A stretch of DNA of 64,000 nucleotides from an uncultured Acidimicrobiia bacterium. Lineage in GTDB: Bacteria; Actinomycetota; Acidimicrobiia; Spongiisociales; JAENVV01. Below are positions 5,744 to 16,651 of this stretch, piece after piece. Location of the stretch: assembly GCA_964600365.1 (NCBI GenBank), contig CAZRJG010000002.1, forward strand, positions 36,180 to 100,179, read 5' to 3'. The notes under the pieces are model-generated. The model did no database searches. It saw only the letters and a list, made by a program, of their open reading frames with translations, and was not told the origin of the DNA. The translations under genes were made by a program, and so were the position numbers. Each line of letters begins with the position of its first letter. The first letter of the stretch is position 1.

Positions 5744-6534
5744 CGCAGGAGCCTCACCAACGAGCCCCACAGGTCGGTGGTCCGCTCGAACGCCACCGCG
5801 CCGTCATCCACGAGCTTGCCGACGTGGGCGGCGACCGAGTGCGCGGCGATGGGGTGGAGTTCGGGGTCCACGTCGGCATACACGTCTTCGACGATCGCTC
5901 CGATGCTCCCGGCGCCCGACCGGAGGGCCGCGATGACCTGCTCCTCGCGCTCGAGCCTGTGGGAGATGTAGTGGTCGATCACCCCGGCGGGGTCGTCGAT
6001 CTCAGGACCGTGGCCAGGGAAAAGGCGCTCGAGCGTGAGGTCGCGCACCTTGCGGAGGCTGGCGAGGTAGGCGGTGAGGTCCTGCACCATCACCGTGGAG
6101 CCGCCCATGATGTGGTCCCCGGTGAACATCCACCGATCGAGCACGAAACACAGGTGGTCATCGGCGTGACCGGGCGTGTGGAGGACCTCGAGCGAGGAGC
6201 CGGCCACCTCCACGGTGCTGCCCTCCGAGAGCTGCTCGTCGGGCCGGAACTCGGCCGAGGGTGCGTAGCCCAGCGCCACCGTCCCCCAGTTCCGGGCCAG
6301 GGGGTTGGCCAGCGGCGCATGGTCGAGGTGGGTGTGGGTGACAACGACGGAGGCGACCCGCCTTCCGGCAACGACCCGATCGATCGCAGCAGCGTGCGCA
6401 TCGATCACGGGACCGGGGTCGAGCACGATCACCTCGTCGGCGTCGCCGATGACCCACGTATTCGTGCCGAGTCCTGTCCAGGGGCTGGGATTGGGGGCGA
6501 GGACCTTCTCGACCCTCACGCGTCGTGCTCCCAC
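5740..6534 (-). CDS. MBL-fold metallo-hydrolase (hydroxyacylglutathione hydrolase-like)
   Basis: VVTHTHLDHA (HxHxDH), HTPGHADDH; 264 aa. Confidence 0.75.
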   Translation of the reverse strand: MGARRVRVEKVLAPNPSPWTGLGTNTWVIGDADEVIVLDPGPVIDAHAAAIDRVVAGRRVASVVVTHTHLDHAPLANPLARNWGTVALGYAPSAEFRPDEQLSEGSTVEVAGSSLEVLHTPGHADDHLCFVLDRWMFTGDHIMGGSTVMVQDLTAYLASLRKVRDLTLERLFPGHGPEIDDPAGVIDHYISHRLEREEQVIAALRSGAGSIGAIVEDVYADVDPELHPIAAHSVAAHVGKLVDDGAVAFERTTDLWGSLVRLLR

Positions 6535-8333: not shown

Positions 8334-10099
8334 TGCCGCTCATCGGCACCGCAGGACACGTCGACCACGGCAAGTCCACCCTCATCGCCGCCCTCACCGG
8401 ACGGGATCCGGACCGCTGGGCCGAGGAGAAGGAGCGAGGCCTGACGATCGACCTCGGCTTCGCATGGACTCACCTCGGCGACACCGAGGTGTCCTTCGTC
8501 GATGTGCCCGGCCACGAGCGGTTCCTCAAGAACATGCTCGCCGGGATCGAACCGATCGACGTCGCCCTGTTCGTCGTGGCAGCGGATGAGGGTTGGTCGG
8601 CCCAGTCGGAGGAACACCTCTCGGTCATCGACCTCCTCGGCATCTCCACGGGTGTCATCGCCCTCACAAAGGTTGATCGCGTCGACGACGACCTCGTGGA
8701 ACTCGCTTCCCTCGAGGCAGAGGAACGCCTCACCGGGACGTCGTTGGAAGGGGCACAGGTCGTGCCGGTCTCCGCTGTGCGGGGCGACGGAATGGACGCA
8801 TTGCGCAGCGCCCTCGCCGGGCTCGTCGCGCACGCGACCCCTCGGCCCGGCCCGCCGACCCTCTGGATCGACCGCTCCTTCTCGGTTGCGGGCGCCGGGA
8901 CCATCGTCACGGGCACCCTGTCGGGGGGATCGGTTGCGGTCGGCGACGACCTCATCCACCTCCCCACGGGGGATCGCACGCGAATCCGCACCATCCAGAG
9001 CCATGAGACGGACCTCGCCGAGGTCGGCCCGGGGCGACGGATCGCACTCGGGGTTCCCGACCTCTCCCGTGGGGCGGCGGTCCGCGGGTCCGTGCTCACG
9101 GTTCCCGGGGTGCGCACCACCTCGACCACGCTGCTGGTCGACCTCCACCCCGCCCGTGGCTTCGAGGACGCCACCTCGAGCCGCGGTGCGTTCCACGTCC
9201 ACCTGGGATCGGGCGACTGGCCGGCAACACTCCGGACCATCGATGAGAGGACCGCACTCGTGGACCTCGACACCCCGATCCCGGTGGTGGTCGGGGATCG
9301 CTGCATCATCCGCGATGCGGGGCGACGAGCCGTGGTGGCGGGAGGTGTCGTCCTCCATCCCTTCCCCGAGCGTCGTCGACGAGCCGCCGCCGCGGCCGCA
9401 GTGCGCCTCCGATCCACACGAGGGGGCACGCCGGATGACGTCGCCGACGCACTGCTCGAGACAGCCGGCGTCGCCGAGCTCGCCAGGCTCGCAACCGCGT
9501 CGGGGGGCGGCGCGCCTCGACGGGCGGTGGTCGCAGGCACGGTGGCCGCCACTCGGGAACAGTTGGAGGCCGCTGCCGGGCGGGCGGTCGCGGCGGCGCG
9601 GGCCCATCACCTGGAACACCCGCTCAGAGACGGCATCCCCAAGGCCGAGCTGGGTGCGGCATCGGGCCTCCCGCCCGAGTTCGTGGATGCCGTCATCGCC
9701 GCAAGGCCGGAGCTCGAAGCAGTCGGCGCAACGGTCGCCGCCGACGGGCATCGGCCCGGGCTCTCCCACGCCCACGAAGCCGCGTGGCGTGCAGCTCGCG
9801 GCCTCCTGTCCGACGCTGGCTTCTCGCCGCCCCGGGCCAGCGAGCTCCTCGCCGACGGCGAGCTCACACACGTGCTCACGCGGCGAGAACAGCTCGTCCA
9901 GGTCGGTGAGTTCCTGTACCTCCCGGACACGCTCGCCGAGGTGGAAGGGGTGCTTCGCACGCTCCCGTCACCGTTCACCGTCTCGGAGGCGAAGGACGCG
10001 CTGGGCATCTCGCGCAAGCACGCGGTGCCGCTCATGGAGTGGTGCGATGCGAACGGCGTGACCCGGAGGTCGGGCGACGGCCGGGCGGTGCGGGACTAG
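8333..10099 (+). CDS. selB: Selenocysteine-specific elongation factor
   Basis: GTPase motifs ([21 protein letters not shown]) followed by a long winged-helix C-terminal extension; 588 aa. The ATG overlaps the selA stop. Confidence 0.85.
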
Positions 10100-10398
10100 C
10101 GACCGGCAGAGGCCGAGAGAGCCCGCTTGCGGTCGGACTCGGTCATGCCGCCCCAGATGCCATACGCCTCGCGCAGCGTGAGGGCGTACTCTCGGCATTC
10201 GGTGAGGACGGGACACACCTGGCAGATCGCCTTCGCCCGCGTCTCGCGGCGCTCGCGATCGTCCTTCCTCTCGAAGGCGGTGGGCGGGAAGAACAGGTGT
10301 GCGTGGTTCCCTCGGCACATGCCCTCGGTATGCCAATCGGTCACCTGCTGCTGCACCACCACACTCCTCACTGCCTCGCGGTCGTGCCGAGGGAACAT
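10096..10398 (-). CDS. WhiB-family (Wbl) Fe-S transcriptional regulator
   Basis: Four-Cys pattern C..C....C.VC..C plus GIWGG and a basic tail. It is convergent with selB. Confidence 0.8.
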   Translation of the reverse strand: MFPRHDREAVRSVVVQQQVTDWHTEGMCRGNHAHLFFPPTAFERKDDRERRETRAKAICQVCPVLTECREYALTLREAYGIWGGMTESDRKRALSASAGR

Positions 10399-10401
10399 AG
10401 T

Positions 10402-10437
10402 GGGGGGATCCCAAGGTGTCTAGGGATGGATCCCCCC
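10402..10437. promoter_or_regulatory. 10-bp perfect inverted repeat GGGGGGATCC(N16)GGATCCCCCC immediately upstream of the whiB start
   Basis: Read directly from the sequence; it lies 4 to 40 nt 5' of the whiB ATG on the coding strand. Confidence 0.3.
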
Positions 10438-10576
10438 GACGCGCGCAGTTCCCACGTCCGGCGCATCGATCACTCACGGCCTGAGTCGTCCCTCAAACGC
10501 AGGATCAAACGCCAGCCGAGTTCAGTGGGGACACATTCGGGTCAAGGGACTCGATCTGGCGCGGAAGGAGACCGGA

Positions 10577-10828
10577 ATGCCGCTCTACATGGATGTCCAC
10601 ACGCTCGAAGGAGGCGTCGCTGCGGCGGACGTCGCCGAGGCCCACAAGGCTGACCTGGCAACACAGGGCGCACACGGCGTCAACTACCTGAAGTACTGGG
10701 TGGACGAGGAGGCGGGGAAGATCTTCTGCCTCGTCGACGCGCCAGACGCCGAAGCAGCGAACACCGTCCACCGAGAGGCACACGGCCTCGTCGCAGATGA
10801 GATCTACCCCGTCAGCGAACACGAGTAG
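10577..10828 (+). CDS. DUF4242 domain protein (SCO4226-like small metal-binding protein family)
   Basis: MPLYMDVHT...YLKYWVDEEAGKIFCLVDAPDAEAANTVHREAHGLVADEIY matches the DUF4242 consensus; 83 aa. Confidence 0.6.
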   Translation: MPLYMDVHTLEGGVAAADVAEAHKADLATQGAHGVNYLKYWVDEEAGKIFCLVDAPDAEAANTVHREAHGLVADEIYPVSEHE

Positions 10829-10914
10829 CGGTACGCATCGCGGGCGGTTCGTTGCGAACACCACCCGCGATGCGCCGCCTCCCGACCGATGCCACGTGCA
10901 AGGATCCAGCCTCG

Positions 10915-12738
10915 ATGCCCATACAGATCCAACTCCTCGGGCAACCCCGCATCTCCTGCGAGTCCAAGGAGGCGTATCGGTTCAGGGGCCGGAAGAGTTG
11001 GGCCCTGCTCGCCGTCCTCCTCCTGAGTGACAGAACCCGGACCCGTTCCGAACTCGCATCACTGCTGTTCTCCGAAGCGAACGACCCGCTCCGTGCACTT
11101 CGCTGGAGCCTTGCCGAGATCCGTCGCGCGCTGGGCGAATCGGGCTCCGTCGAGGGCGACCCGGTGGAGATCCGCCTCCCACCGGGATCGGTGGTCGACA
11201 TCGAGGTGCTGACACGGGGCTCGTGGCGGGACGCCGTGCGCCTCGAAGGACTGGGTGGCGACCTCCTCGACGGCTTCGCCATCCGGGATGCGCCCGCCTT
11301 CTCTTCCTGGCTGCTCTCCGAGCAACGGCACGTCGCCGCGGTGTCGGAGGCGATCCTCCACGAAGCGGCACTGGGGTCGATGTCCGCGGGCGACACGACC
11401 GACGCCATCCGGTTCGCGGTGCGTGCGACGACGCTGAATCCCTTCGACGAGAACCACCAGGCGCTCCTCCTCCGGCTGTACCGCCGAGCCGGCGATGAGG
11501 AGTCGGCAGCGCGCCAGTTCGCTGCGTACAAATCCCTCGTCGACCGGGAGTTGGGCACGACACCCGGGCCGGTCATCCATGCGGCGATGCGTGTCGAGCC
11601 AGCGGACCTCGCCGCCGAGCCGAGTCCCGCAGAGGTGGAGGCGATCATCGAGGCCGGCTCGGCCGCCGTGGCCGCGGGGGCCATCGAGTCGGGCGTCGAG
11701 TCCCTTCGGACCGCGGTACGCCTCGCCGATCGCGCGGGGGAACGGGGCGCTCGCATCCGGTCCCGTCTCGTCCTCGCCGAGGCACTCATCCACTCCCTCA
11801 GGGGCTTCGACGAGGACGGCGTCGCGGCACTCCACGAGATCGAGGCAATCGCCAAGGGCCCAGGCGACAACCCCTCGGTGGCCCGGGCGCGCGTCGAACT
11901 GGGCTACGTCGACTTCCTCCGGGCCCGCTACGACCGCTCCGTGAAGTGGCTCACCGATGCCCTTCGGACCGATGCCGACCTGCCAACCATCGCCAAGGCG
12001 TCGACGTACCTCGGGTGCGTCGAGAGCGACCGGGCCGACTACCCGACCGCCCGCGCGCTCCTGGAGCGGGGGCTGCGATCCGCGCAGGACGCGGGGAGCC
12101 TCCGACTCGAGGCGTTCGCAGCGTCGATGCTGGGGCGGATCGACCTGCTCCGGGGCGACCTCACCGCGGCGACACGGCATCTCGACCGAGCCACGGAGGT
12201 GGCCGAGCGGGACCACTGGCTCGCCTTCCTGCCGTGGCCCCAAGCGCTCCGCGGGGAGGTCGCGCTCACCCGTGGCGATCTCGACGAGGCCGAGGAGTCG
12301 CTGCACCATGCCTTCGCCCGTGCTTGTCAGCTCGGCGATCCCTGCTGGGAGGGACTTGCCTCGAGGGGCCTCGCCCTCGTCGCGGAACGCCGGGGTGACG
12401 TCGGGTCGGCATTCGACCTCCTCGTCGACGCGCGCAGGCGAAACGGCCGGTTCGCCGACCCCTACGTGTGGCTCGACGGCTACATCCTGGACACGCAGTG
12501 CACGCTGGGGCTTCGCCACGACCATCCCGACACGGCCAGGTGGGTCGAGGCGATGCAGGACCTCACGTCCCGGACCGACATGAAGGAACTCGTTGCACGA
12601 GCGCTGCATCACAGCGGTCGACTGGGGAACGCCGGCGACGGGGAGGCGGCCGCAATGGTCGCCTCGGAGATCGAGAGCCCCGTGCTCACCGGGCTGATCG
12701 GGAACGCGCCCGGGCGAGCATCGGGCCGGGCGGGCTAG
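10915..12738 (+). CDS. SARP/AfsR-family transcriptional regulator (OmpR-type wHTH + BTAD + TPR-like C-region)
   Basis: The N-terminal part (IQLLGQPRISCESKEAYRFRGRKSWALLAVLLL...) is an OmpR-like DNA-binding domain. It is followed by a BTAD (LYRRAGDEESAARQFAAYKSLVDRELGTTPG) and Ala/Leu-rich TPR-like repeats. Start taken at the internal Met 10915. Confidence 0.75.
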   Translation: MPIQIQLLGQPRISCESKEAYRFRGRKSWALLAVLLLSDRTRTRSELASLLFSEANDPLRALRWSLAEIRRALGESGSVEGDPVEIRLPPGSVVDIEVLTRGSWRDAVRLEGLGGDLLDGFAIRDAPAFSSWLLSEQRHVAAVSEAILHEAALGSMSAGDTTDAIRFAVRATTLNPFDENHQALLLRLYRRAGDEESAARQFAAYKSLVDRELGTTPGPVIHAAMRVEPADLAAEPSPAEVEAIIEAGSAAVAAGAIESGVESLRTAVRLADRAGERGARIRSRLVLAEALIHSLRGFDEDGVAALHEIEAIAKGPGDNPSVARARVELGYVDFLRARYDRSVKWLTDALRTDADLPTIAKASTYLGCVESDRADYPTARALLERGLRSAQDAGSLRLEAFAASMLGRIDLLRGDLTAATRHLDRATEVAERDHWLAFLPWPQALRGEVALTRGDLDEAEESLHHAFARACQLGDPCWEGLASRGLALVAERRGDVGSAFDLLVDARRRNGRFADPYVWLDGYILDTQCTLGLRHDHPDTARWVEAMQDLTSRTDMKELVARALHHSGRLGNAGDGEAAAMVASEIESPVLTGLIGNAPGRASGRAG

Positions 12739-13133
12739 CTGCACCCGGTACGCCGGTACACGACCATCCACGCACTCCCGAAGCGCTCCCGTTCCTCGTC
12801 GGTCGACCGGCGCAGGAACGGTCCCTCCCGCGGCGACCACCCCTCGGGAGTGGGTTCGAGCAGGTTCGCTTCGGTGCGACGGGAGTAGCTGCTCAACCGG
12901 TTCCCCAGGTAGGTGAGCACCGAGTAGCGGGTACCCGATCCGTACAGCCCGTAGCGCTCCACGAGCGCGTCCCATCGATCCGGGAACGCCGCCGCGAAGG
13001 CATCGGCGAACGCCAGGATCGAAAAGGAGGGGGCCATCAGCTCGATCGTCGCCTCCACCTCTTCGTCGGGGACGAGGGGGATCCTGTCTCCATCCGCTGC
13101 GTGGCCCGAGGCTACGCGCGCACGCGCCGCCAT
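12735..13133 (-). CDS. Hypothetical protein (132 aa)
   Basis: Coding-like composition. It is convergent with the SARP gene, and the two stop codons overlap inside a GCTAGC palindrome. No family recognised. Confidence 0.4.
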   Translation of the reverse strand: MAARARVASGHAADGDRIPLVPDEEVEATIELMAPSFSILAFADAFAAAFPDRWDALVERYGLYGSGTRYSVLTYLGNRLSSYSRRTEANLLEPTPEGWSPREGPFLRRSTDEERERFGSAWMVVYRRTGCS

Positions 13134-13163
13134 CGGGTTCCCGCCCCCGGCACCCGACCGACA

Positions 13164-13200
13164 CCAGGCAGGGCCGCCCCGTCGGGGCGGCCCTGCCTGG
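13164..13200. other. Very stable GC hairpin: 17-bp perfect stem CCAGGCAGGGCCGCCCC / GGGGCGGCCCTGCCTGG with a 3-nt loop
   Basis: Read directly. It abuts the att-like tRNA-fragment repeat. A related 9-bp-stem hairpin (GGGCCGCCC-CGAA-GGGCGGCCC) sits at 15235-15256 next to the intact tRNA-Pro. Confidence 0.6.
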
Positions 13201-13208
13201 TGTCTCTT

Positions 13209-13253
13209 GGTCGGGACGGTCGGATTTGAACCGACGACCTCAGCGTCCCGAAG
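13209..13253 (-). repeat. attR-like partial copy of the tRNA-Pro 3' half (anticodon loop to CCA end; 43/45 identical to 15273-15317)
   Basis: tggtcgggacggtcggatttgaaccgacgacctcagcgtcccgaa compared with tggtcgggacggtgggatttgaacccacgacctcagcgtcccgaa. The 5' half of a tRNA is absent, so this is not a second tRNA gene. Confidence 0.7.
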
Positions 13254-13346
13254 GCGCCCGCCATGGACTGAGGCGTACTCCTGCGGACCAAAACCCCAGG
13301 TCAGAGCAGTACGGTGACTGCCGCGAACTGCGGTGGACGCCTACGG

Positions 13347-13368
13347 ACGCGCGATGGACGCGCGATGG
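13347..13368. repeat. Tandem 11-mer GACGCGCGATG x2 (copy A), candidate integrase arm-type site
   Basis: An identical 22-mer recurs at 15194-15215, just inside the other end of the island. Confidence 0.4.
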
Positions 13369-13380
13369 AGCGGGGTTCGG

Positions 13381-13662
13381 TCAGGCGACCTCGAGGAACC
13401 GGCGGATCGCCTCACGGATGATCTCGCTGGTGGTGGTGTGCTCGGCTTCGGCGCGCGCTTCGATCGCAGCTCGCAGTTCGGGGTCGATGCGGACCGGCAC
13501 GACGTCGGCCGGACCCGATCCCATCGGAGGCCGACCCCGGCGCCGGGTCTTGAGGGCTTCGACGTCGTATTCGGTCTCGGCGACCTCGTTGGCGAGTGCG
13601 TCGATCTCCTCGTCGGTGAGGGTGCGGCCGCTGCGCGTGCGATGGGTCTTCGCTTCCGTCAT
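13381..13662 (-). CDS. BrnA-like antitoxin with C-terminal ribbon-helix-helix domain
   Basis: 93 aa. The C-terminal part (VVPVRIDPELRAAIEARAEAEHTTTSEIIREAIRRFL) is an RHH fold. The ATG overlaps the upstream toxin stop by 4 nt (ATGA). Confidence 0.65.
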   Translation of the reverse strand: MTEAKTHRTRSGRTLTDEEIDALANEVAETEYDVEALKTRRRGRPPMGSGPADVVPVRIDPELRAAIEARAEAEHTTTSEIIREAIRRFLEVA

Positions 13663-13922
13663 GGCATGTCCTCCCTGGTCTGCGGGAGCAAGTCGTAGAA
13701 GGTCGGTCGGAGCGGCATGGCGTGGATCACCAGATTGATGTCGTCGGCGAGTTCGAGCCAGATGATCTCCAGCAGATTGCCAGCTCGGTCGGGTCCGATG
13801 GCAAGGGCTTTGGGTGGGTCTGCGTCGGGGTCGAGGTCGATAATGGTGATGGCATGGTCGAGGGCGTGGAGGATGGCGGCATCGTCGATACCGTGCTTGC
13901 GGGCCGACCGGTGGATCTCCAC
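13659..13922 (-). CDS. BrnT-like (DUF497) toxin, toxin-first operon
   Basis: 87-aa core (VEIHRSARKHGIDDAAILHAL...AIGPDRAGNLLEIIWLEL...VIHAMPLRPT) resembles the BrnT/DUF497 layout KHG(I/V)..EA ... iG..r.G.lL.vv ... I(S/H)A(R/M). GTG start chosen just downstream of a palindromic operator. The 154-aa ORF extension upstream is judged spurious. Confidence 0.5.
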   Translation of the reverse strand: MEIHRSARKHGIDDAAILHALDHAITIIDLDPDADPPKALAIGPDRAGNLLEIIWLELADDINLVIHAMPLRPTFYDLLPQTREDMP

Positions 13923-13925
13923 ATC

Positions 13926-13945
13926 ACAATATTGTAATACGAAAG
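13926..13945. promoter_or_regulatory. Palindromic operator ACAATATTGT (10-bp perfect, imperfectly extended) overlapping a -10-like TACAAT, immediately 5' of the toxin start
   Basis: On the coding (minus) strand the sequence reads ...CGTATTACAATATTGTGATGTGG.... RHH antitoxins typically autoregulate at such palindromes. The spacing suggests a leaderless or near-leaderless transcript. Confidence 0.35.
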
Positions 13946-14085
13946 TCAGGTGAAGGGAACCGACTGTCTGACATCGCTGGGGGATACGCCTACGTGTCAG
14001 CGTGTCGCCTGCGGCCGATCCTGGAAGTGCCGTTCCCGGGTGCTTTGCGGAATGTGCGATATGGCACCGTATTTGGTGTTCTGGG

Positions 14086-14460
14086 CTACTCGGCGAGGTC
14101 GATGGTTCCGTCGCGTCGGCCACCTTCGGAGAAGGTTCGGAATCCGATCAGGGCCATGAGGAACCAGACGGCGCCGATGAGCAGTTCGAGGCCTAGCTCC
14201 CCGAACGCCCCAGACGAGATCCCGTTTGTGAGCAGGTCCCGCGTACCGAGGAGTCCGTGGTGGAGCGGAAGTAGGTTGGCGATCTGTTGCACCCATTCGG
14301 GAAAGACCTCGGTGGCGACGTTGACGCCGCCGATGGCGACGAGGGTGTAGAAGACGAAGTTGAAGAGGATGTTGCCGATGCGGAGGCGTCGGATGCTGAT
14401 CGCGGCGAGGAAGAGGCCGAGCCCGTAGGAGCCGAGAGCGACGGCGATGAGGCCGACCGG
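14086..14460 (-). pseudogene. C-terminal fragment (about 125 aa) of an ABC-2 type transporter permease, 5'-truncated
   Basis: The frame reads ...WWLLPVGLIAVALGSYGLGLFLAAISIRRLRIGNILFNFVFYTLVAIGGVNVATEVFPEWVQQIANLLPLHHGLLGTRDLL...GAVWFLMALIGF and then stops. No N-terminal part is present; the sequence upstream switches to the integrase fragment at about 14461. Confidence 0.5.
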
Positions 14461-14462
14461 CA

Positions 14463-15194
14463 GAAGCCACCAGTGGCCGGCTCAACGCCGCCGTGCTCGA
14501 CGATCGGATCGCCCGGTCACCCTGTCGGGGCATTCGGCTGCCGGCCATCCAACCGACCGACCGGCCCGTGCTCACGGCTTCCCAGTTGGCGGATCTCACT
14601 GAGGCGCTGGGACCCGACTACGGGCTGATGGTGCATCTCGGGGCGGTGCTCGGGCTGCGGTGGGGTGAATGCGCCGGACTCCGCATCGGTCGGATCGACT
14701 TCGACCGAGCGACCGTCGCCATCACCGAACAGGTCACCCGGGGCGCCGGAGGCCGCTCGGTCCTCGGGCCACCCAAGTCCCAGGCCGCCCGCAGGACCCT
14801 GGCCGCACCGCCGGTGCTCACAGATCTCATCGCCGAGCACCTCGAGCGTCGGGGGCTCACAACCAGAGACACCCATGCCTTCCTGTTCGCCGGCTTGGAC
14901 GGTGGACACCTCGACTACTCGAACTGGCTGCACCGAATCTGGTATCCCGCCCGCCAACAAGCCGGTGTCGAGTGGGCCCAATTCCACGACCTCCGCCGAG
15001 CAAACGCCACCGGACTCGTCCTCGAAGGCATCGACCTCAAGACCGCCCAAACCCGACTCGGGCACACCGACCCGAGGCTGACACTCGGCATCTACGCCCA
15101 AGCCAGCACCGAAGCCGACCGCCACGCCGCCGAACGACTCGGCGACCGATTCCTCCCGAAACGGGACCACGACAACGGAAGAGGCCTTATCTGA
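14463..15194 (+). pseudogene. Tyrosine recombinase (phage integrase) catalytic domain only, N-terminal arm/core-binding domains missing
   Basis: R...HxLRH...Y-type catalytic region (LGLRWGECAGLRIGRID...HDLRRANATGLV...RLGHTDPRLTLGIYAQ). The frame opens at about 14463 without a plausible start or N-domain. The stop lies immediately before tandem 11-mer copy B. Confidence 0.6.
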
Positions 15195-15215
15195 CGCGCG
15201 ATGGACGCGCGATGG
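15194..15215. repeat. Tandem 11-mer GACGCGCGATG x2 (copy B)
   Basis: Identical to 13347-13368. Confidence 0.4.
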
Positions 15216-15272
15216 AAACCCCTCCCAAACCAGCGGGCCGCCCCGAAGGGCGGCCCTGACCTGGGGTTTCTC

Positions 15273-15349
15273 TGGTCGGGACGGTGGGATTTGAACCCAC
15301 GACCTCAGCGTCCCGAACGCTGCGCGCTGCCAAACTGCGCCACGTCCCG
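15273..15349 (-). tRNA. tRNA-Pro (anticodon CGG)
   Basis: Manual fold: acceptor CGGGACG/CGTCCCG, D-arm GCGC-AGTTTGGCA-GCGC, anticodon stem CAGCG/CGCTG with loop TTCGGGA (U33, CGG, G37), T-arm GTGGG-TTCAAAT-CCCAC, discriminator A, encoded CCA. Confidence 0.85.
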
Positions 15350-15394: not shown

Positions 15395-16651
15395 TCAGGC
15401 GGGTCGCACGACACGGATCGTGGCGATCCGGTTCCGATCCATGTGGTCCACGACGAGCTCGATGTCACCGATCGCCACCTGATCACCCGGCTCGGGGATC
15501 GACCCGTGCTCGGCGAGGAAGAGGCCGGCGAGCGTGGCGTACGGACCGTCGGGCAGCACCTCACCAATTGCCTCAGCGACCGCGTCGAAGGGGATGCGTC
15601 CATCGGCGAGCCACAGGTCCTCCCCTACGGCCACGATGCTCGGGCTCCCGGGGTCGAACTCATCACGGAGGTCACCGATCAACTCGCCGACGAGGTCCTT
15701 GGGGGTGATGAGGCCGTCGAACCCACCGTGCTCGTCCAGCACGATCGCGTACCCGATCCGCCGAACGCGGAAATCGCGGAGTGCATCGAGGAGCGCCGCC
15801 GACTCGGGGACGAACTGGGGGGTGCGAACGAGTGAGCGCAACTCCGTGGAGGACACGTCGGGGCCGAGCCGGAGGACGTCCTTGACGTAGAGCACACCCA
15901 CGAGGTCATCGAGCGATCCCTCCTCGGCCAGGACAGGGAACCGGGAGTGTCCCGTCTCGGCCACGACCTGCCTGATCGCCTCGACATCGAGTGGGAGGCG
16001 AAGGGACACGACGTCGACGCGGGGGGTCATGACCTCCCGCACGGGACGATCGGCGGCTGCGAAGAGCGCATCGATGATCTGGTGGGTGTGCTCCCCGATC
16101 CCTCCCACCGCGAGGCCCATCGCCGCGAGGGCCCGGATGTCGTCCTCGGTCACCTCCGGTGCATCCCTACGGATCCCCCACCGCGTCGGGCGGAGGAGCC
16201 CGCGGCTCACCCCCATGAACACACGGGAGACCGGGGTCAGGATGCGTCGGAGCCAGTACAGGGGGATCGAGGCGAACAGCCCATACGACTCCGGGTCGCG
16301 GGAGGCCATGGTCTTGGGCGTGATCTCACCGAGGACGAGGATCACCGCCGTCATCCCGAACGTGGCAAGGATTGGGCCGAGTGGCTCCCCGACGAGTTCC
16401 GTGGCGAGCACCGTCGCGATCGTTGCGGCGAGGATGTTCACGAAGTTGTTCGCTACGAGGATCGTGCCGATCGTCCCCTCGGCGTCGTCCGACAACGCTG
16501 CGAGCCGCTCGCCGCGCCGGCCATTGCTGCGCAACTGGTCGAGACGCTCGCGAGGGATCGCGACGACTGCGGTCTCCGAACCCGAGAGGAACCCCGAGGC
16601 AATGAAGCAGAGCCCGAGGACGGCGACGAGCCCGAGTTGGGTGGGGGTCAC
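15395..16651 (-). CDS. CNNM/HlyC-CorC family transporter (DUF21 TM domain + CBS pair + CorC_HlyC)
   Basis: N-terminal 4-TM DUF21, central CBS pair, C-terminal transporter-associated domain; GTG start. Confidence 0.85.
   Translation of the reverse strand: MTPTQLGLVAVLGLCFIASGFLSGSETAVVAIPRERLDQLRSNGRRGERLAALSDDAEGTIGTILVANNFVNILAATIATVLATELVGEPLGPILATFGMTAVILVLGEITPKTMASRDPESYGLFASIPLYWLRRILTPVSRVFMGVSRGLLRPTRWGIRRDAPEVTEDDIRALAAMGLAVGGIGEHTHQIIDALFAAADRPVREVMTPRVDVVSLRLPLDVEAIRQVVAETGHSRFPVLAEEGSLDDLVGVLYVKDVLRLGPDVSSTELRSLVRTPQFVPESAALLDALRDFRVRRIGYAIVLDEHGGFDGLITPKDLVGELIGDLRDEFDPGSPSIVAVGEDLWLADGRIPFDAVAEAIGEVLPDGPYATLAGLFLAEHGSIPEPGDQVAIGDIELVVDHMDRNRIATIRVVRPA

Follow-up and report, generated by a model that had tools for sequence, protein, structure and literature searches.

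The 3′ end of a tRNA-Pro gene in an uncultured Acidimicrobiia bacterium is followed, within the 64,000-nt stretch of contig CAZRJG010000002.1 analysed here (the window), by part of an integrase gene, a toxin-antitoxin (TA) operon and, about 2 kb away, a second copy of the tRNA 3′ half. This arrangement raises the question of what kind of DNA lies at the tRNA gene, how it reached its present state and why the TA operon has survived in it. Comparison with related genomes leads us to conclude that positions 13208–15349 are very probably the immobilised remnant of a small (~4–5 kb) Acidimicrobiia integrative element, belonging to a family for which we found no published description. The tRNA gene, the copy of its 3′ half and the conserved flanks are as follows.

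15395–16651, minus strand: gene of the CNNM/CBS/CorC family (Pfam), the conserved flank upstream of the tRNA and synteny anchor
15273–15349, minus strand: intact tRNA-Pro(CGG) with encoded CCA (ARAGORN; Rfam RF00005, 66.3 bits, E 1.8e-13; alignment with relatives)
15273–15317, minus strand: proximal att core, the 3′ 45 nt of tRNA-Pro(CGG), T-stem GTGGG/CCCAC
13208–13252, minus strand: distal att core, the displaced tRNA-Pro 3′ half from anticodon loop to CCA, T-stem GTCGG/CCGAC
10096–10344, minus strand: whiB-family gene, the conserved flank that comes first after tRNA-Pro in empty sites (Pfam Whib, E 2.7e-22; blastn synteny)

The original prediction of an intact tRNA-Pro is borne out by both the ARAGORN call and the Rfam match. 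It had also placed a 45-bp copy of the tRNA 3′ half at 13209–13253; the identity of 43/45 stands (direct repeat D1, 13208–13252 against 15273–15317), while the coordinates were 1 nt off. In a chance test with a 31-nt subpattern of this repeat and up to three mismatches, 0.00 occurrences were expected in shuffles. Both mismatches between the copies fall on one T-stem base pair and compensate each other, a sign that the copies stem from two functional sources of tRNA type; no third copy of the fragment was found within the window, including near 10428. Four related Acidimicrobiia genomes (L006, L009, L010, L011) have empty sites in which the CNNM gene, tRNA-Pro, its own terminator and whiB follow each other, with 119–132 nt between tRNA and whiB. 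Among them L006 is a complete chromosome whose CNNM protein shows 89% amino acid identity, and CNNM orthologues (89–48% identity) adjoin tRNA-Pro(CGG) throughout L006–L013. Neither an element hairpin nor the 24-nt motif described below occurs at any of the four empty sites. In L001, L003/L004 and L012, on the other hand, a full int gene (373–374 aa) and xis lie beside tRNA-Pro in the same position and orientation. The DNA is also foreign in composition, with a GC content of 0.605–0.623 over 13600–14400 versus ~0.68–0.72 in the flanks. The empty sites, together with full-length integrases at the same place accompanied by xis and the repeats, uphold the earlier proposal of a decayed integrative insertion at the tRNA-Pro 3′ end.

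Next to the two cores lie hairpins and repeats.

15224–15265, minus strand: hairpin B, a terminator-like stem-loop directly 3′ of tRNA-Pro, in the proximal arm of the element
15193–15216, plus strand: proximal copy of the 24-nt repeat, GACGCGCGATG twice, overlapping the integrase stop codon (repeat D9)
13346–13369, plus strand: distal copy of the 24-nt repeat, 11 nt past the antitoxin stop codon (repeat D9)
13253–13345, minus strand: distal-arm spacer of 93 nt between the 24-nt repeat and the core (conserved blocks)
13153–13215, minus strand: hairpin A, 3′ of the tRNA fragment (inverted repeat I2)

The exact 24-nt direct repeat GACGCGCGATGGACGCGCGATGGA, which the original prediction had missed, consists of two 11-bp units spaced 11 nt apart and is present at fixed distances from the core in at least 20 related loci: the proximal copy at +56 to +61 (nine occupied tRNAs) and the distal copy at −117, twice at −118 (18 tRNA-fragment copies in related loci). 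Tandem junctions in L002, L003, L090 and L091 have the −117 as well as the +56 to +61 repeats, and in variant family members both 11-bp units change jointly (CATCGAACATT twice or CATCCCGCGTT twice). The 24-nt repeats are therefore probably the arm-type sites of the integrase, or at least candidates for them, in an attP of ~250 bp. The spacer block CCAGGTCAG (13296–13304) is inverted relative to its partner CTGACCTGG inside hairpin B (15256–15264); inverted repeat I6 measures 17 nt and is 94% complementary. An alignment of 14 distal arms reveals the conserved blocks CTGACCTGG..TTT..GTCC and AATCCA.GCCGGGAG. As predicted, hairpins adjoin both tRNA copies and both fold, hairpin A with perfect 22-bp arms at 13160–13204 that are extended by CCCGACC/GGTCGGG (−64.8 kcal/mol, z −9.5, flanks included) and hairpin B less strongly (−32.3 kcal/mol, z −3.1). 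Stem-loops of the hairpin B type follow the tRNA in most occupied relatives.

Intact relatives of ~4–5 kb carry int, xis, a gene for a SEC-C-motif protein, cargo and then a TA operon. [quoted passage not shown] A tRNA-Pro gene is the target of pSAM2 too, again with an identity segment that starts in the anticodon loop and reaches the 3′ end. However, in L091 and L003, the intact relatives examined, Pfam and PHROGs searches detected no genes for replication, transfer or virions, so that neither is an AICE or a prophage as defined. Among the phage- and plasmid-borne integrases of the collections searched, moreover, none exceeds 32% identity to the integrase, the interior of the window element has no match in the phage and plasmid collections, and the window copy is a non-mobile remnant. 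Its proximal half consists of the following parts.

14481–15194, plus strand: tyrosine-integrase remnant, residues ~137–373 of ~373 aa (tblastn, alignments)
14478–14481: deletion/fusion junction joining head-to-head the 5′-truncated integrase gene and a 5′-truncated ABC-2 permease gene
14086–14480, minus strand: ABC-2 type transporter permease fragment, the C-terminal 131 codons and stop (Pfam ABC2_membrane)

Full-length integrase homologues (373–374 aa) match PF14659, PF22022 and PF00589, whereas the open reading frame at 14493–15194 matches only the catalytic domain PF00589 (E 1.3e-17). The claim that every N-terminal domain is gone goes slightly too far: homology begins at LNAAVLDD (14481) by tblastn and alignments, so that the remnant still includes the final helix of the core-binding domain, while the arm-binding domain and most of the core-binding domain are missing. 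The core module of int, xis and the SEC-C gene is absent from the window. What is left of the integrase is 76–90% identical in amino acid sequence to the full integrases of L001, L003/L004 and L012 and forms a 237-codon open frame without stop codon or frameshift, suggesting that the deletion is recent on the dS scale (0.37 to the nearest relative) or that the remnant is still constrained. The homologies end at 14089–14481 (minus, ABC-2) and from 14481 (plus, integrase), and comparison with progenitor-like sequences leaves at most 3 bp of microhomology at the junction, which would fit an illegitimate deletion. The head-to-head fusion had been correctly recognised, though it lies at 14478–14481 and not at about 14461. 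Likewise the permease piece is C-terminal as proposed, but its 131 aa, covering ABC2_membrane profile positions 132–208 of 211, are roughly the C-terminal half of the protein and not a third. No ATPase partner was found near it, and only six homologues (60–78% identity) were retrieved.

The distal half holds the TA operon.

13923–13963, minus strand: predicted TA promoter/operator region (conserved motif)
13659–13922, minus strand: toxin gene of the RelS family, 87 aa, GTG start at 13922 (profile search, AF2, Foldseek)
13381–13662, minus strand: antitoxin gene, 93 aa, C-terminal RHH domain (Pfam RHH_1, E 1e-7, residues 57–91)

In agreement with the original prediction, the toxin-first operon is intact, the toxin stop overlapping the antitoxin ATG (ATGA). 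The proposed likeness to BrnT/BrnA holds for fold and architecture but not for sequence. By homology the toxin is a RelS-family RNase of the RelE/ParE superfamily with a BrnT-like fold: a profile of 38 homologues matches RelS (Rv2663; PDB 9sdc_C) at E 1.4e-16, and the pairwise identity with Mycobacterium tuberculosis RelS is 47% over 79 aa. RelS residues K9, H10 and H64, required for toxicity (PMC13284704), align with K9, H10 and H67 of the window toxin; R4 and K71, of minor effect in RelS (PMC13284704), are replaced by H4 and T74. RelS-RelI (Rv2663–Rv2664) shares the toxin-first order and BrnT-like fold, but its HTH antitoxin RelI has no detectable similarity to the RHH antitoxin of the window in a PDB search, where the latter gave weak CopG/ParD matches; the window operon also differs in being the end module of an integrative element. 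The AF2 model of the toxin (pLDDT 82.8) has BrnT of Brucella abortus (PDB 3u97) as its best Foldseek match (TM 0.60/0.67), with 19% identity in the structural alignment. BrnT-BrnA is likewise bicistronic and toxin-first, with an antitoxin whose C-terminal domain is of the RHH type (PMC11980606). Against Pfam, however, the toxin gives no significant match to BrnT_toxin, only DUF4258 below the cutoff (E 6e-4), and the antitoxin reaches BrnA_antitoxin faintly (E 0.11, 13 bits, cutoff 26).

Neither gene is truncated, and both evolve under purifying selection (dN/dS 0.07–0.24 for the toxin, 0.06–0.20 for the antitoxin). Of 80 loci, 78 have the antitoxin behind the toxin and the remaining two are interrupted by contig ends; in at least 12 loci the distal end of the element combines both genes with the 24-nt repeat, the spacer and the tRNA fragment. 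The sequence directly upstream of the GTG start, CGTATTACAATATTGTGAT, is nearly palindromic and overlaps a −10-like TACAAT. Across 73 loci with toxins 64–100% identical to that of the window, the motif cGTATTACgATATTG..GATGTG is conserved; a consensus sigma-70 scan detected nothing at 13923–13963. The TA transcript is probably leaderless. With full-length genes, dN/dS of 0.06–0.24, a conserved operator motif and a distal position in many relatives, the TA operon is indeed the only intact part of the element.

Beyond the displaced tRNA half, the window carries further DNA.

10428–13152: older lineage-specific layer from the tRNA fragment to whiB, absent from L006, L009, L010 and L011
12735–13133, minus strand: unknown 132-aa gene (orf132)
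10852–12738, plus strand: BTAD/TPR regulator gene (Pfam)
10577–10828, plus strand: SCO4226-like gene (Pfam)

An empty site with tRNA-Pro directly followed by the gene at 12735–13133 had been expected and was not found. Instead the empty sites join the tRNA to whiB, so that the genes at 10577–13133 are lineage-specific too. Foreign DNA does lie between the two tRNA copies (13253–15272), yet the insert is not limited to this interval: the window has ~4.85 kb more than the four empty sites (~10428–15272). By this comparison tRNA-Pro is an insertion hotspot, and the 2-kb remnant is its most recent layer.

The gene order of the progenitor would have been int, xis (HTH_17), the SEC-C gene, variable cargo, then the genes for a RelS-like toxin and its RHH antitoxin. 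In an attP of ~250 bp, two tandem 11-bp arm sites and the 93-nt spacer would have preceded a 45-bp core that matches tRNA-Pro(CGG) exactly between anticodon loop and CCA; the terminator hairpin, a second tandem pair of arm sites and the stop codon of int would have followed. The integrase recombined attP with the tRNA gene, which is now completed by the element's copy, and the 3′ half present before lies ~2 kb away, a step evident from the compensatory T-stem pair by which the halves differ; an att identity segment that spans the tRNA 3′ end leaves the gene intact after integration (PMC2440964). One illegitimate deletion may then have removed int codons 1–136, xis, the SEC-C gene and the 5′ half of the permease gene, leaving the element presumably unable to excise. 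Independent erosions occurred elsewhere (L087, L095, L099, L086, L007, L008, L013). The TA operon, toxin-first, presumably translationally coupled and probably leaderless, has survived complete. Judging from RelS, the toxin may cut the 3′ end of 16S rRNA, the N-terminal part of the antitoxin may neutralise it and the RHH domain may repress the operon via the near-palindrome TCGTATTAC(A/G)A.

Several other histories have to be weighed. The bare presence of the repeat is all that speaks for ancestral DNA or a local duplication of the tRNA region, to which we give almost no weight given the empty sites in four relatives, the two tRNA-type sources indicated by the T-stem pair and the different contents enclosed by the same borders in many genomes. 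It is also highly improbable that the integrase, reduced to its catalytic domain, has been domesticated and still works as a recombinase. Its open frame, the catalytic motifs LRWGE, HDLRR, LGHTD and GIYAQ present on inspection of the translation, and dN/dS of 0.10–0.22 would suit such a role, but these ratios were taken against intact homologues and mostly reflect evolution that preceded the deletion, neither a conserved start codon nor a promoter can be made out, xis has been lost along with the arm-binding and core-binding domains, and other remnants are cut elsewhere (last 74 aa in L095, last 60 aa in L007, only scraps in L087). Less easily dismissed, if still rather unlikely, is that the ABC-2 fragment did not belong to the cargo of this element and came by a second deletion, an unrelated insertion or a fusion of stacked elements, implying at least two rearrangements. 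No ABC-2 homologue occurs in the 80 TA-bearing relatives or in L001–L013, the surroundings of its six homologues show no sign of this element, and TA-module homology in relatives stops at 13944–14039 (DNA homology at 13944–13963), short of the stop codon of the permease fragment (14086). Cargo peculiar to one member is nevertheless to be expected, since no two members have the same genes between the SEC-C gene and the TA operon (L091 has a membrane protein there, L086 a hydrolase, the P0055 contig Hachiman-like genes), and two head-to-head 5′-truncated genes are what a single deletion between divergent genes produces. As the ABC-2 fragment was not found in other family members, the case for a single deletion within a single element is one of economy.

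Two further alternatives deserve more credit. It is quite possible, though we lean against it, that the tRNA fragment and hairpin A were left by an earlier family member and are not the original host 3′ half, 10428–13152 being the remains of an earlier element or of other insertions; on that view the remnant would be the latest addition to a tandem array that has since decayed. The excess over the empty sites is ~4.85 kb and not 2 kb, tandem arrays and stacked scars are common in the family (L002, L003, L090, L091, L007), the GTCGG T-stem of the fragment recurs in occupied tRNAs of L007 and L008, and hairpin A is similar to the hairpins that the elements in L001 and L008 carry, not to the host terminator of L006, so that the displaced fragment may derive from an earlier element. 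On the other hand, the fragment and the native tRNA of L006, the closest empty-site genome, agree at 47 of 48 positions; left of hairpin A there is no trace of a 24-nt repeat, integrase, xis or SEC-C gene; neither an att remnant nor a third tRNA fragment marks the left end of the layer near 10428; and homologues of its three genes are missing from L001–L013. As for the TA operon, a single recent deletion may simply have missed it, with no addiction, benefit or selection for retention, a reading that we regard as possible but doubtful. One junction accounts for the whole anatomy, the open integrase frame suggests a recent event, and family members without a RelS-like TA exist (L003, L012); TA-only relatives were mostly gathered with the toxin as query, which amounts to an ascertainment bias. 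However, all four eroded sites sampled regardless of TA, representing only about three independent lineages, retain a TA or its remains: the RelS-like pair in the window, an intact HigB/HTH_3 pair in L008, a truncated HigB-like ORF in L007 and an antitoxin remnant in L013. Besides purifying selection on both genes, the order of decay fits addiction, with the toxin frameshifted or lost and the antitoxin kept (L134 group, L013); no locus among those examined had an intact toxin and a broken antitoxin.

TA-mediated retention of the remnant of this integrative element is plausible and fits the recurrent TA-only remnants. A comparable case is mosAT of SXT (PMC2654960), which belongs to a different TA family; there too the TA is carried by an element that excises as a non- or poorly replicating circle and is expected to penalise loss of the element. 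Since the window element would no longer be able to excise, only protection against deletion or host benefit could still apply, and the simplest options would be that deletions removing the antitoxin are lethal or that the module benefits the host. Altogether, the tRNA-Pro remnant would be an ordinary kind of genomic fossil.

We scanned species-representative genomes with CNNM, the conserved gene (15395-16651, minus strand) that flanks the tRNA-Pro(CGG) of the window, whose DNA is about 69% GC and whose closest relatives are Acidimicrobiia metagenome-assembled genomes. Four empty sites were recovered. In L006, a complete Acidimicrobiia chromosome (CNNM 89% identical at the amino acid level), and in three further genomes, L009, L010 and L011 (61-62%), an unrelated terminator comes after CNNM and tRNA-Pro(CGG), and whiB, located at 10096-10344 in the window, lies 119-132 nt beyond the tRNA; the hairpin and 24-nt motif typical of the element are absent from all four. 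The DNA behind the window tRNA is thus an insertion, and the same comparison sets the inserted block at about 10428-15272 (4.85 kb), which exceeds the 2-kb unit (13208-15349) between the tRNA and a displaced copy of its 3' half. The original prediction had expected an empty site in which tRNA-Pro leads directly to the gene at 12735-13133 (orf132); none was found, the empty sites leading to whiB instead. Its broader proposal, an integrase-mediated insertion at tRNA-Pro that has since decayed, does hold, with the integrase beside the tRNA, the border repeats and the empty sites all found. Overall, its observation was confirmed and its interpretation supported, after correction of the position of the gene junction, of the toxin-antitoxin (TA) family and of the extent of the insertion, the 2-kb unit being nested in the 4.85-kb block. 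The features of this unit are the following.

15273-15349, minus strand: intact tRNA-Pro(CGG) (ARAGORN; Rfam tRNA model, 66.3 bits)
13208-13255 and 15273-15320: direct repeat of the tRNA 3' end (repeat finder)
13160-13204: hairpin A, perfect 22-bp arms (-64.8 kcal/mol, z -9.5 with flanks)
15224-15265: hairpin B (-32.3 kcal/mol, z -3.1)
13381-13662, minus strand: antitoxin gene (93 aa)
13659-13922, minus strand: toxin gene (87 aa)
Immediately upstream of the toxin GTG start: motif cGTATTACgATATTG..GATGTG, a near-palindrome over a -10-like hexamer, present in 73 loci
14086-14475, minus strand: C-terminal part of ABC2_membrane (Pfam profile positions 132-208 of 211)

As anticipated, the tRNA is intact by both methods and, in the alignment of the two repeats, the tRNA part (13208-13252 versus 15273-15317) is identical at 43 of 45 positions, one base away from the coordinates first proposed. 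A 31-nt piece of this repeat, searched with up to 3 mismatches, occurs at two sites only, with 0.00 expected in shuffled sequences. The two mismatches are a G-to-C and a C-to-G change at paired T-stem positions (GTGGG/CCCAC versus GTCGG/CCGAC), and therefore both copies derive from tRNA-like, foldable sequences. The GC-rich hairpins that had been noted beside the tRNA copies were recovered 3' of each by repeat search and folding. Non-tRNA Rfam matches at the hairpins and repeats (miRNA and plastid families) were rejected as palindromes only, all far under the gathering scores. At 13153-13215, CCCGACC, with which the tRNA fragment ends, pairs with GGTCGGG beyond hairpin A, so that these 7 nt lengthen the palindrome to 28 bp.

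[quoted passage not shown] Its nearest homologues are 373-374 aa long with PF14659, PF22022 and PF00589 domains, PF14659 (Phage_int_SAM_3) standing at the N terminus of the full-length relatives. In protein-to-DNA alignments, integrase homology begins at LNAAVLDD (14481), about residue 137, and ABC-2 homology stops at the same place on the opposite strand. Since the two homologies meet at one point, the predicted head-to-head fusion of permease and integrase is real, although it lies at 14478-14481 and not at about 14461; compared with progenitor-like sequences, the junction displays at most 3 bp of microhomology. The ABC-2 frame stops at the junction, short of a complete membrane domain (about 211 profile positions), and no ATPase partner gene adjoins the fragment in the window. 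With residues 1-136 and xis absent, the window integrase is predicted to have lost its capacity for excision and integration. The remnant has no stop codon and no frameshift, and its dS to the nearest relative is 0.37; because the frame is undamaged and dN/dS versus intact homologues is low, the deletion is probably recent relative to the divergence from the sampled relatives.

Database entries for 189-250-aa 'integrases' were considered as a conserved truncated form, and this was rejected for L001, a related locus in which the 245-aa call (P0001) lies inside a full-length frame: L001:202-1323 is an under-called integrase gene with a GTG start. The other calls of this size (P0002, P0008, P0013-P0015) may be under-called full-length genes too, and the gene maps of other short integrase calls leave space for an uncalled N-terminal part. 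As under-calling is possible, length by itself is no proof of truncation.

Intact relatives of the element were found at the same tRNA. The L001 contig shares the CNNM flank, and beside its tRNA-Pro lie xis and an open 373-codon integrase frame whose product is 90% identical to the remnant; full-length integrase orthologues hold the same position in L001, L003 and L012. On the 226-kb Acidimicrobiia contig of L003/L004, a unit of about 4.9 kb contains genes for a 391-aa protein, a 65-aa protein and a SEC-C-motif protein, then xis (HTH_17), int and tRNA-Pro, and is bordered at its far end by a tRNA fragment. In L091 the order is int, xis, SEC-C protein, membrane protein, toxin, antitoxin, 24-nt repeat, tRNA fragment, hairpin, second 24-nt repeat and a further integrase remnant, and L002 holds tandem element copies with PemK and HepT/MNT modules. 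The family core is int, xis and the SEC-C protein gene; in the window, xis and the SEC-C gene have left no trace. The 391-aa protein (L003:6531-7706 and L002:569-1744, 97% identity) is conserved in the TA-less branch and has no Pfam or PHROG match. The contig of the database entry P0055 combines SEC-C protein, xis and int with a Hachiman-like cargo of HamA and DEAD-box helicase. Most of the cargo of the family appears to consist of TA or defence genes. Family elements yielded no genes for replication, transfer or virions; the intact relatives L091 and L003 gave no Rep/Tra match in Pfam or PHROG and contain, besides int, xis and the SEC-C protein gene, only cargo genes or unknown ones. The window interior (13254-15272), searched as suggested against phage collections and likewise against plasmid collections, gave no match; no integrase of the phage and plasmid collections is more than 32% identical to that of the window, and IMG/VR returned integrases at 27-28% identity only.

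The window and its relatives also display a constant arrangement of short motifs around the core, the 45-bp identity segment formed by the tRNA 3' half.

13346-13369 and 15193-15216: 24-nt exact direct repeat GACGCGCGATGGACGCGCGATGGA, two units, 11 nt apart
13296-13304 and 15256-15264: inverted pair CCAGGTCAG / CTGACCTGG, about -52 and +8 from the core
L002, about 6030-6073: candidate variant arm site, distal arm upstream of the tRNA fragment
L098, about 2188-2230: candidate variant arm site, downstream of the core
L141, 7956: candidate variant arm site, upstream of the fragment

The 24-nt repeat was overlooked in the original prediction; one copy lies 11 nt past the antitoxin stop codon and the other overlaps the integrase stop codon. 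In a survey of 35 core copies from the window and relatives, 18 tRNA-fragment copies have the start of the 24-nt motif at -117 (twice -118), 9 full tRNAs at occupied sites have it at +56 to +61 past the core, and tandem junctions hold both positions; repeated motifs distinct from the core sequence are therefore placed at fixed positions on either side of it. In a few members both 11-bp units are swapped jointly, for CATCGAACATT x2 in L002 and L098 and for CATCCCGCGTT x2 in L141, as would be expected if a protein recognised the tandem pair as its binding site. We infer that the 11-bp units are arm-type sites for the N-terminal domain missing from the window integrase, and the variant units suggest sub-families differing in arm-site specificity. 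The inverted pair, CTGACCTGG ... CCAGGTCAG on opposite sides of the core, is conserved in alignments of the family and may be bound by Xis, by a host factor or by the core domain of the integrase. Identity between core and tRNA begins at the anticodon loop; if the T-stem of the fragment is the displaced earlier sequence, crossover is within the 19 nt from the loop to the first T-stem difference.

The most economical history of the locus is integration and a single deletion. A family member would have integrated at tRNA-Pro, after which one illegitimate deletion between the divergent int and cargo ABC-2 permease genes would have taken both 5' parts plus all DNA between them. The ABC-2 fragment has no counterpart in the other family members examined, and the contexts of its few homologues gave no link to the element; the cargo in the permease slot is different in every member examined, so that a unique ABC-2 cargo gene is unsurprising. 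A second event besides the single deletion is possible. Two sources of the tRNA fragment are equally possible: it may be the host 3' half displaced by the element, as its 47/48 identity to the native tRNA of L006 would indicate, or it may have been left by an earlier element, a reading favoured by hairpin A, which is of the element type, and by the occupied tRNAs of the related loci L007 and L008, which share the T-stem of the fragment.

Between the fragment and whiB, the older layer (10428-13152, about 2.7 kb) holds a SCO4226-like gene, a 628-aa BTAD/TPR regulator and the 132-aa orf132 (10577-13133), which are also lineage-specific. Searches of this layer for a tRNA fragment, a 24-nt repeat or traces of an integrase were negative, the left margin of the 4.85-kb block included, where neither a third tRNA fragment nor a further 24-nt repeat is present, and the genes of the layer have no homologues in the relatives examined. 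Exact-sequence look-ups of orf132 and of P0005 (a 100% identical integrase call) returned nothing. At 9900-10099, the plus-strand gene ending at 10099 resembles a SelB-type elongation factor by its C-terminal translation, a tentative reading based in part on SelB/SelA genes near tRNA-Pro in L003.

The toxin gene comes first in the TA operon and overlaps the antitoxin gene by ATGA. In Pfam the toxin matches only DUF4258, and weakly (20.5 bits versus a cutoff of 25), and the antitoxin has a C-terminal RHH_1 domain (E 1e-7). A profile of 38 toxin homologues matched one solved structure, 9sdc chain C (E 1.4e-16), which is RelS (Rv2663) of M. tuberculosis, an RNase with a BrnT-like fold in the RelE/ParE superfamily; its cleavage site in 16S rRNA lies between C1520 and U1521, and its toxicity requires K9, H10 and H64 (PMC13284704). 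The window toxin shares 47% identity with RelS over 79 aa (E 1e-20) and retains K9, H10 and H67, aligned with RelS K9, H10 and H64; among the 38 homologues H10 is invariant, K9 is the consensus and H67 is at least 90% conserved. The top Foldseek PDB match of an AlphaFold (AF2) model of the toxin (pLDDT 82.8) is BrnT 3u97 (probability 1.00, TM 0.60/0.67). The toxin gave no match to Pfam BrnT_toxin (PF04365) even at E up to 10, and the antitoxin matched BrnA_antitoxin (PF14384) only faintly (E 0.11, 13.3 bits versus a cutoff of 26.1). The predicted BrnT/BrnA-like operon is thus similar to BrnT-BrnA in its toxin-first order, BrnT-like fold and C-terminal RHH domain, whereas the Pfam sequence tests failed and the family assignment is corrected to RelS-type. 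Membership of the antitoxin in the RelI (ClpC2-like HTH) family was rejected, given its RHH_1 match and the absence of the 9sdc antitoxin chain from the matches of a PDB sequence search extended to E 10. As the antitoxin differs, the system as a whole is not RelS-RelI, though the toxin is a RelS family member by homology; the text describing RelS makes no mention of RHH partners or of a mobile-element context (PMC13284704).

Scanning metagenomes with the toxin gave 80 loci, of which 78 have the antitoxin after the toxin and the remaining 2 are cut by contig ends. The window order of toxin, antitoxin, 24-nt repeat, spacer and tRNA fragment is repeated in at least 12 of the closest loci, so the TA pair is a regular distal module of one family branch. 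The 120 toxin homologues listed are all unnamed or 'hypothetical' and none has a Pfam domain; in an exhaustive profile search, 1220 cluster representatives pass E <=0.001, and 305 pass E <=1e-10. The motif upstream of the toxin is a putative promoter/operator of a leaderless TA transcript; at the high GC content of this genome, scans for consensus sigma-70 promoters and terminators gave no usable information. In pairwise comparisons, dN/dS ranges over 0.07-0.24 in toxin genes and 0.06-0.20 in antitoxin genes. PADLOC gave no defence-system match for toxin, antitoxin, orf132, BTAD regulator, SCO4226-like protein or integrase remnant.

The comparison supports a fossil island in which only the addiction module is intact; the further claim that the TA pair was kept because it is addictive is plausible, at roughly an even chance. 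Several independently eroded loci fit such retention: L086 keeps the TA pair without integrase, L087 keeps it with integrase scraps, L095 with the 74 C-terminal residues of the integrase, at a distance of 266 nt from the promoter of the TA pair, and in L099 it directly follows tRNA, hairpin and repeat. Most TA-bearing loci were, however, found through the toxin search. In the sample chosen by CNNM, all four eroded sites hold a TA pair or its remains: besides the window, an intact HigB-like/HTH_3 pair lies right behind a tRNA-Pro scar (hairpin and 24-nt motif) without integrase (L008:3571-4316), a truncated HigB-like ORF lies behind a second scar, again without integrase (L007:14123-14513), and an N-terminally shortened antitoxin has lost its toxin (L013:19864-20091). 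This sample is tiny and partly non-independent. Decay also appears to be toxin-first, as addiction would have it: in addition to L013, a toxin frameshift after codon ~68 removes the conserved C-terminal LRPxFY segment in L134:8001-8260 (also in L135, L137 and L159) with the antitoxin intact, and no intact toxin beside a broken antitoxin was seen in the loci examined. A single deletion that merely stopped short of the TA genes, with no part for addiction, explains the window equally well.

As an object, the locus is a decayed tRNA-associated integrative element, of an ordinary kind. [quoted passage not shown] For the element family no description was found, a literature search on such elements in Acidimicrobiia giving nothing relevant, and the toxin carried by the locus is a variant from a family characterised very recently. 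Taken jointly, and as an evenly balanced proposal, the data would describe a family of miniature (about 4-5 kb) tRNA-Pro(CGG)-specific integrative elements of Acidimicrobiia, with an int/xis/SEC-C core, fixed attP geometry and mostly TA or defence cargo (RelS-like toxin with RHH antitoxin, PemK, HEPN/MNT, HigBA, Hachiman-like HamA with helicase), which form tandem stacks at a single tRNA gene and decay to scars that retain only the TA, and in which a BrnA-like RHH partner of the RelS-like toxin replaces RelI.

For annotation, two 'hypothetical' genes become a RelS-type TA pair, the 'integrase' CDS a pseudogene remnant, the ABC-2 ORF a fragment and the window tRNA a host/element hybrid. The newly characterised RelS toxin type, with its 16S rRNA anti-SD cleavage, is extended to a second kind of antitoxin. 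The clearly readable attP layout is a possible basis for Acidimicrobiia integration vectors, and the many independently eroded copies provide a natural series on whether TA modules outlive their carrier elements. The locus also opens up the very small integrative elements of an uncultured actinobacterial class.
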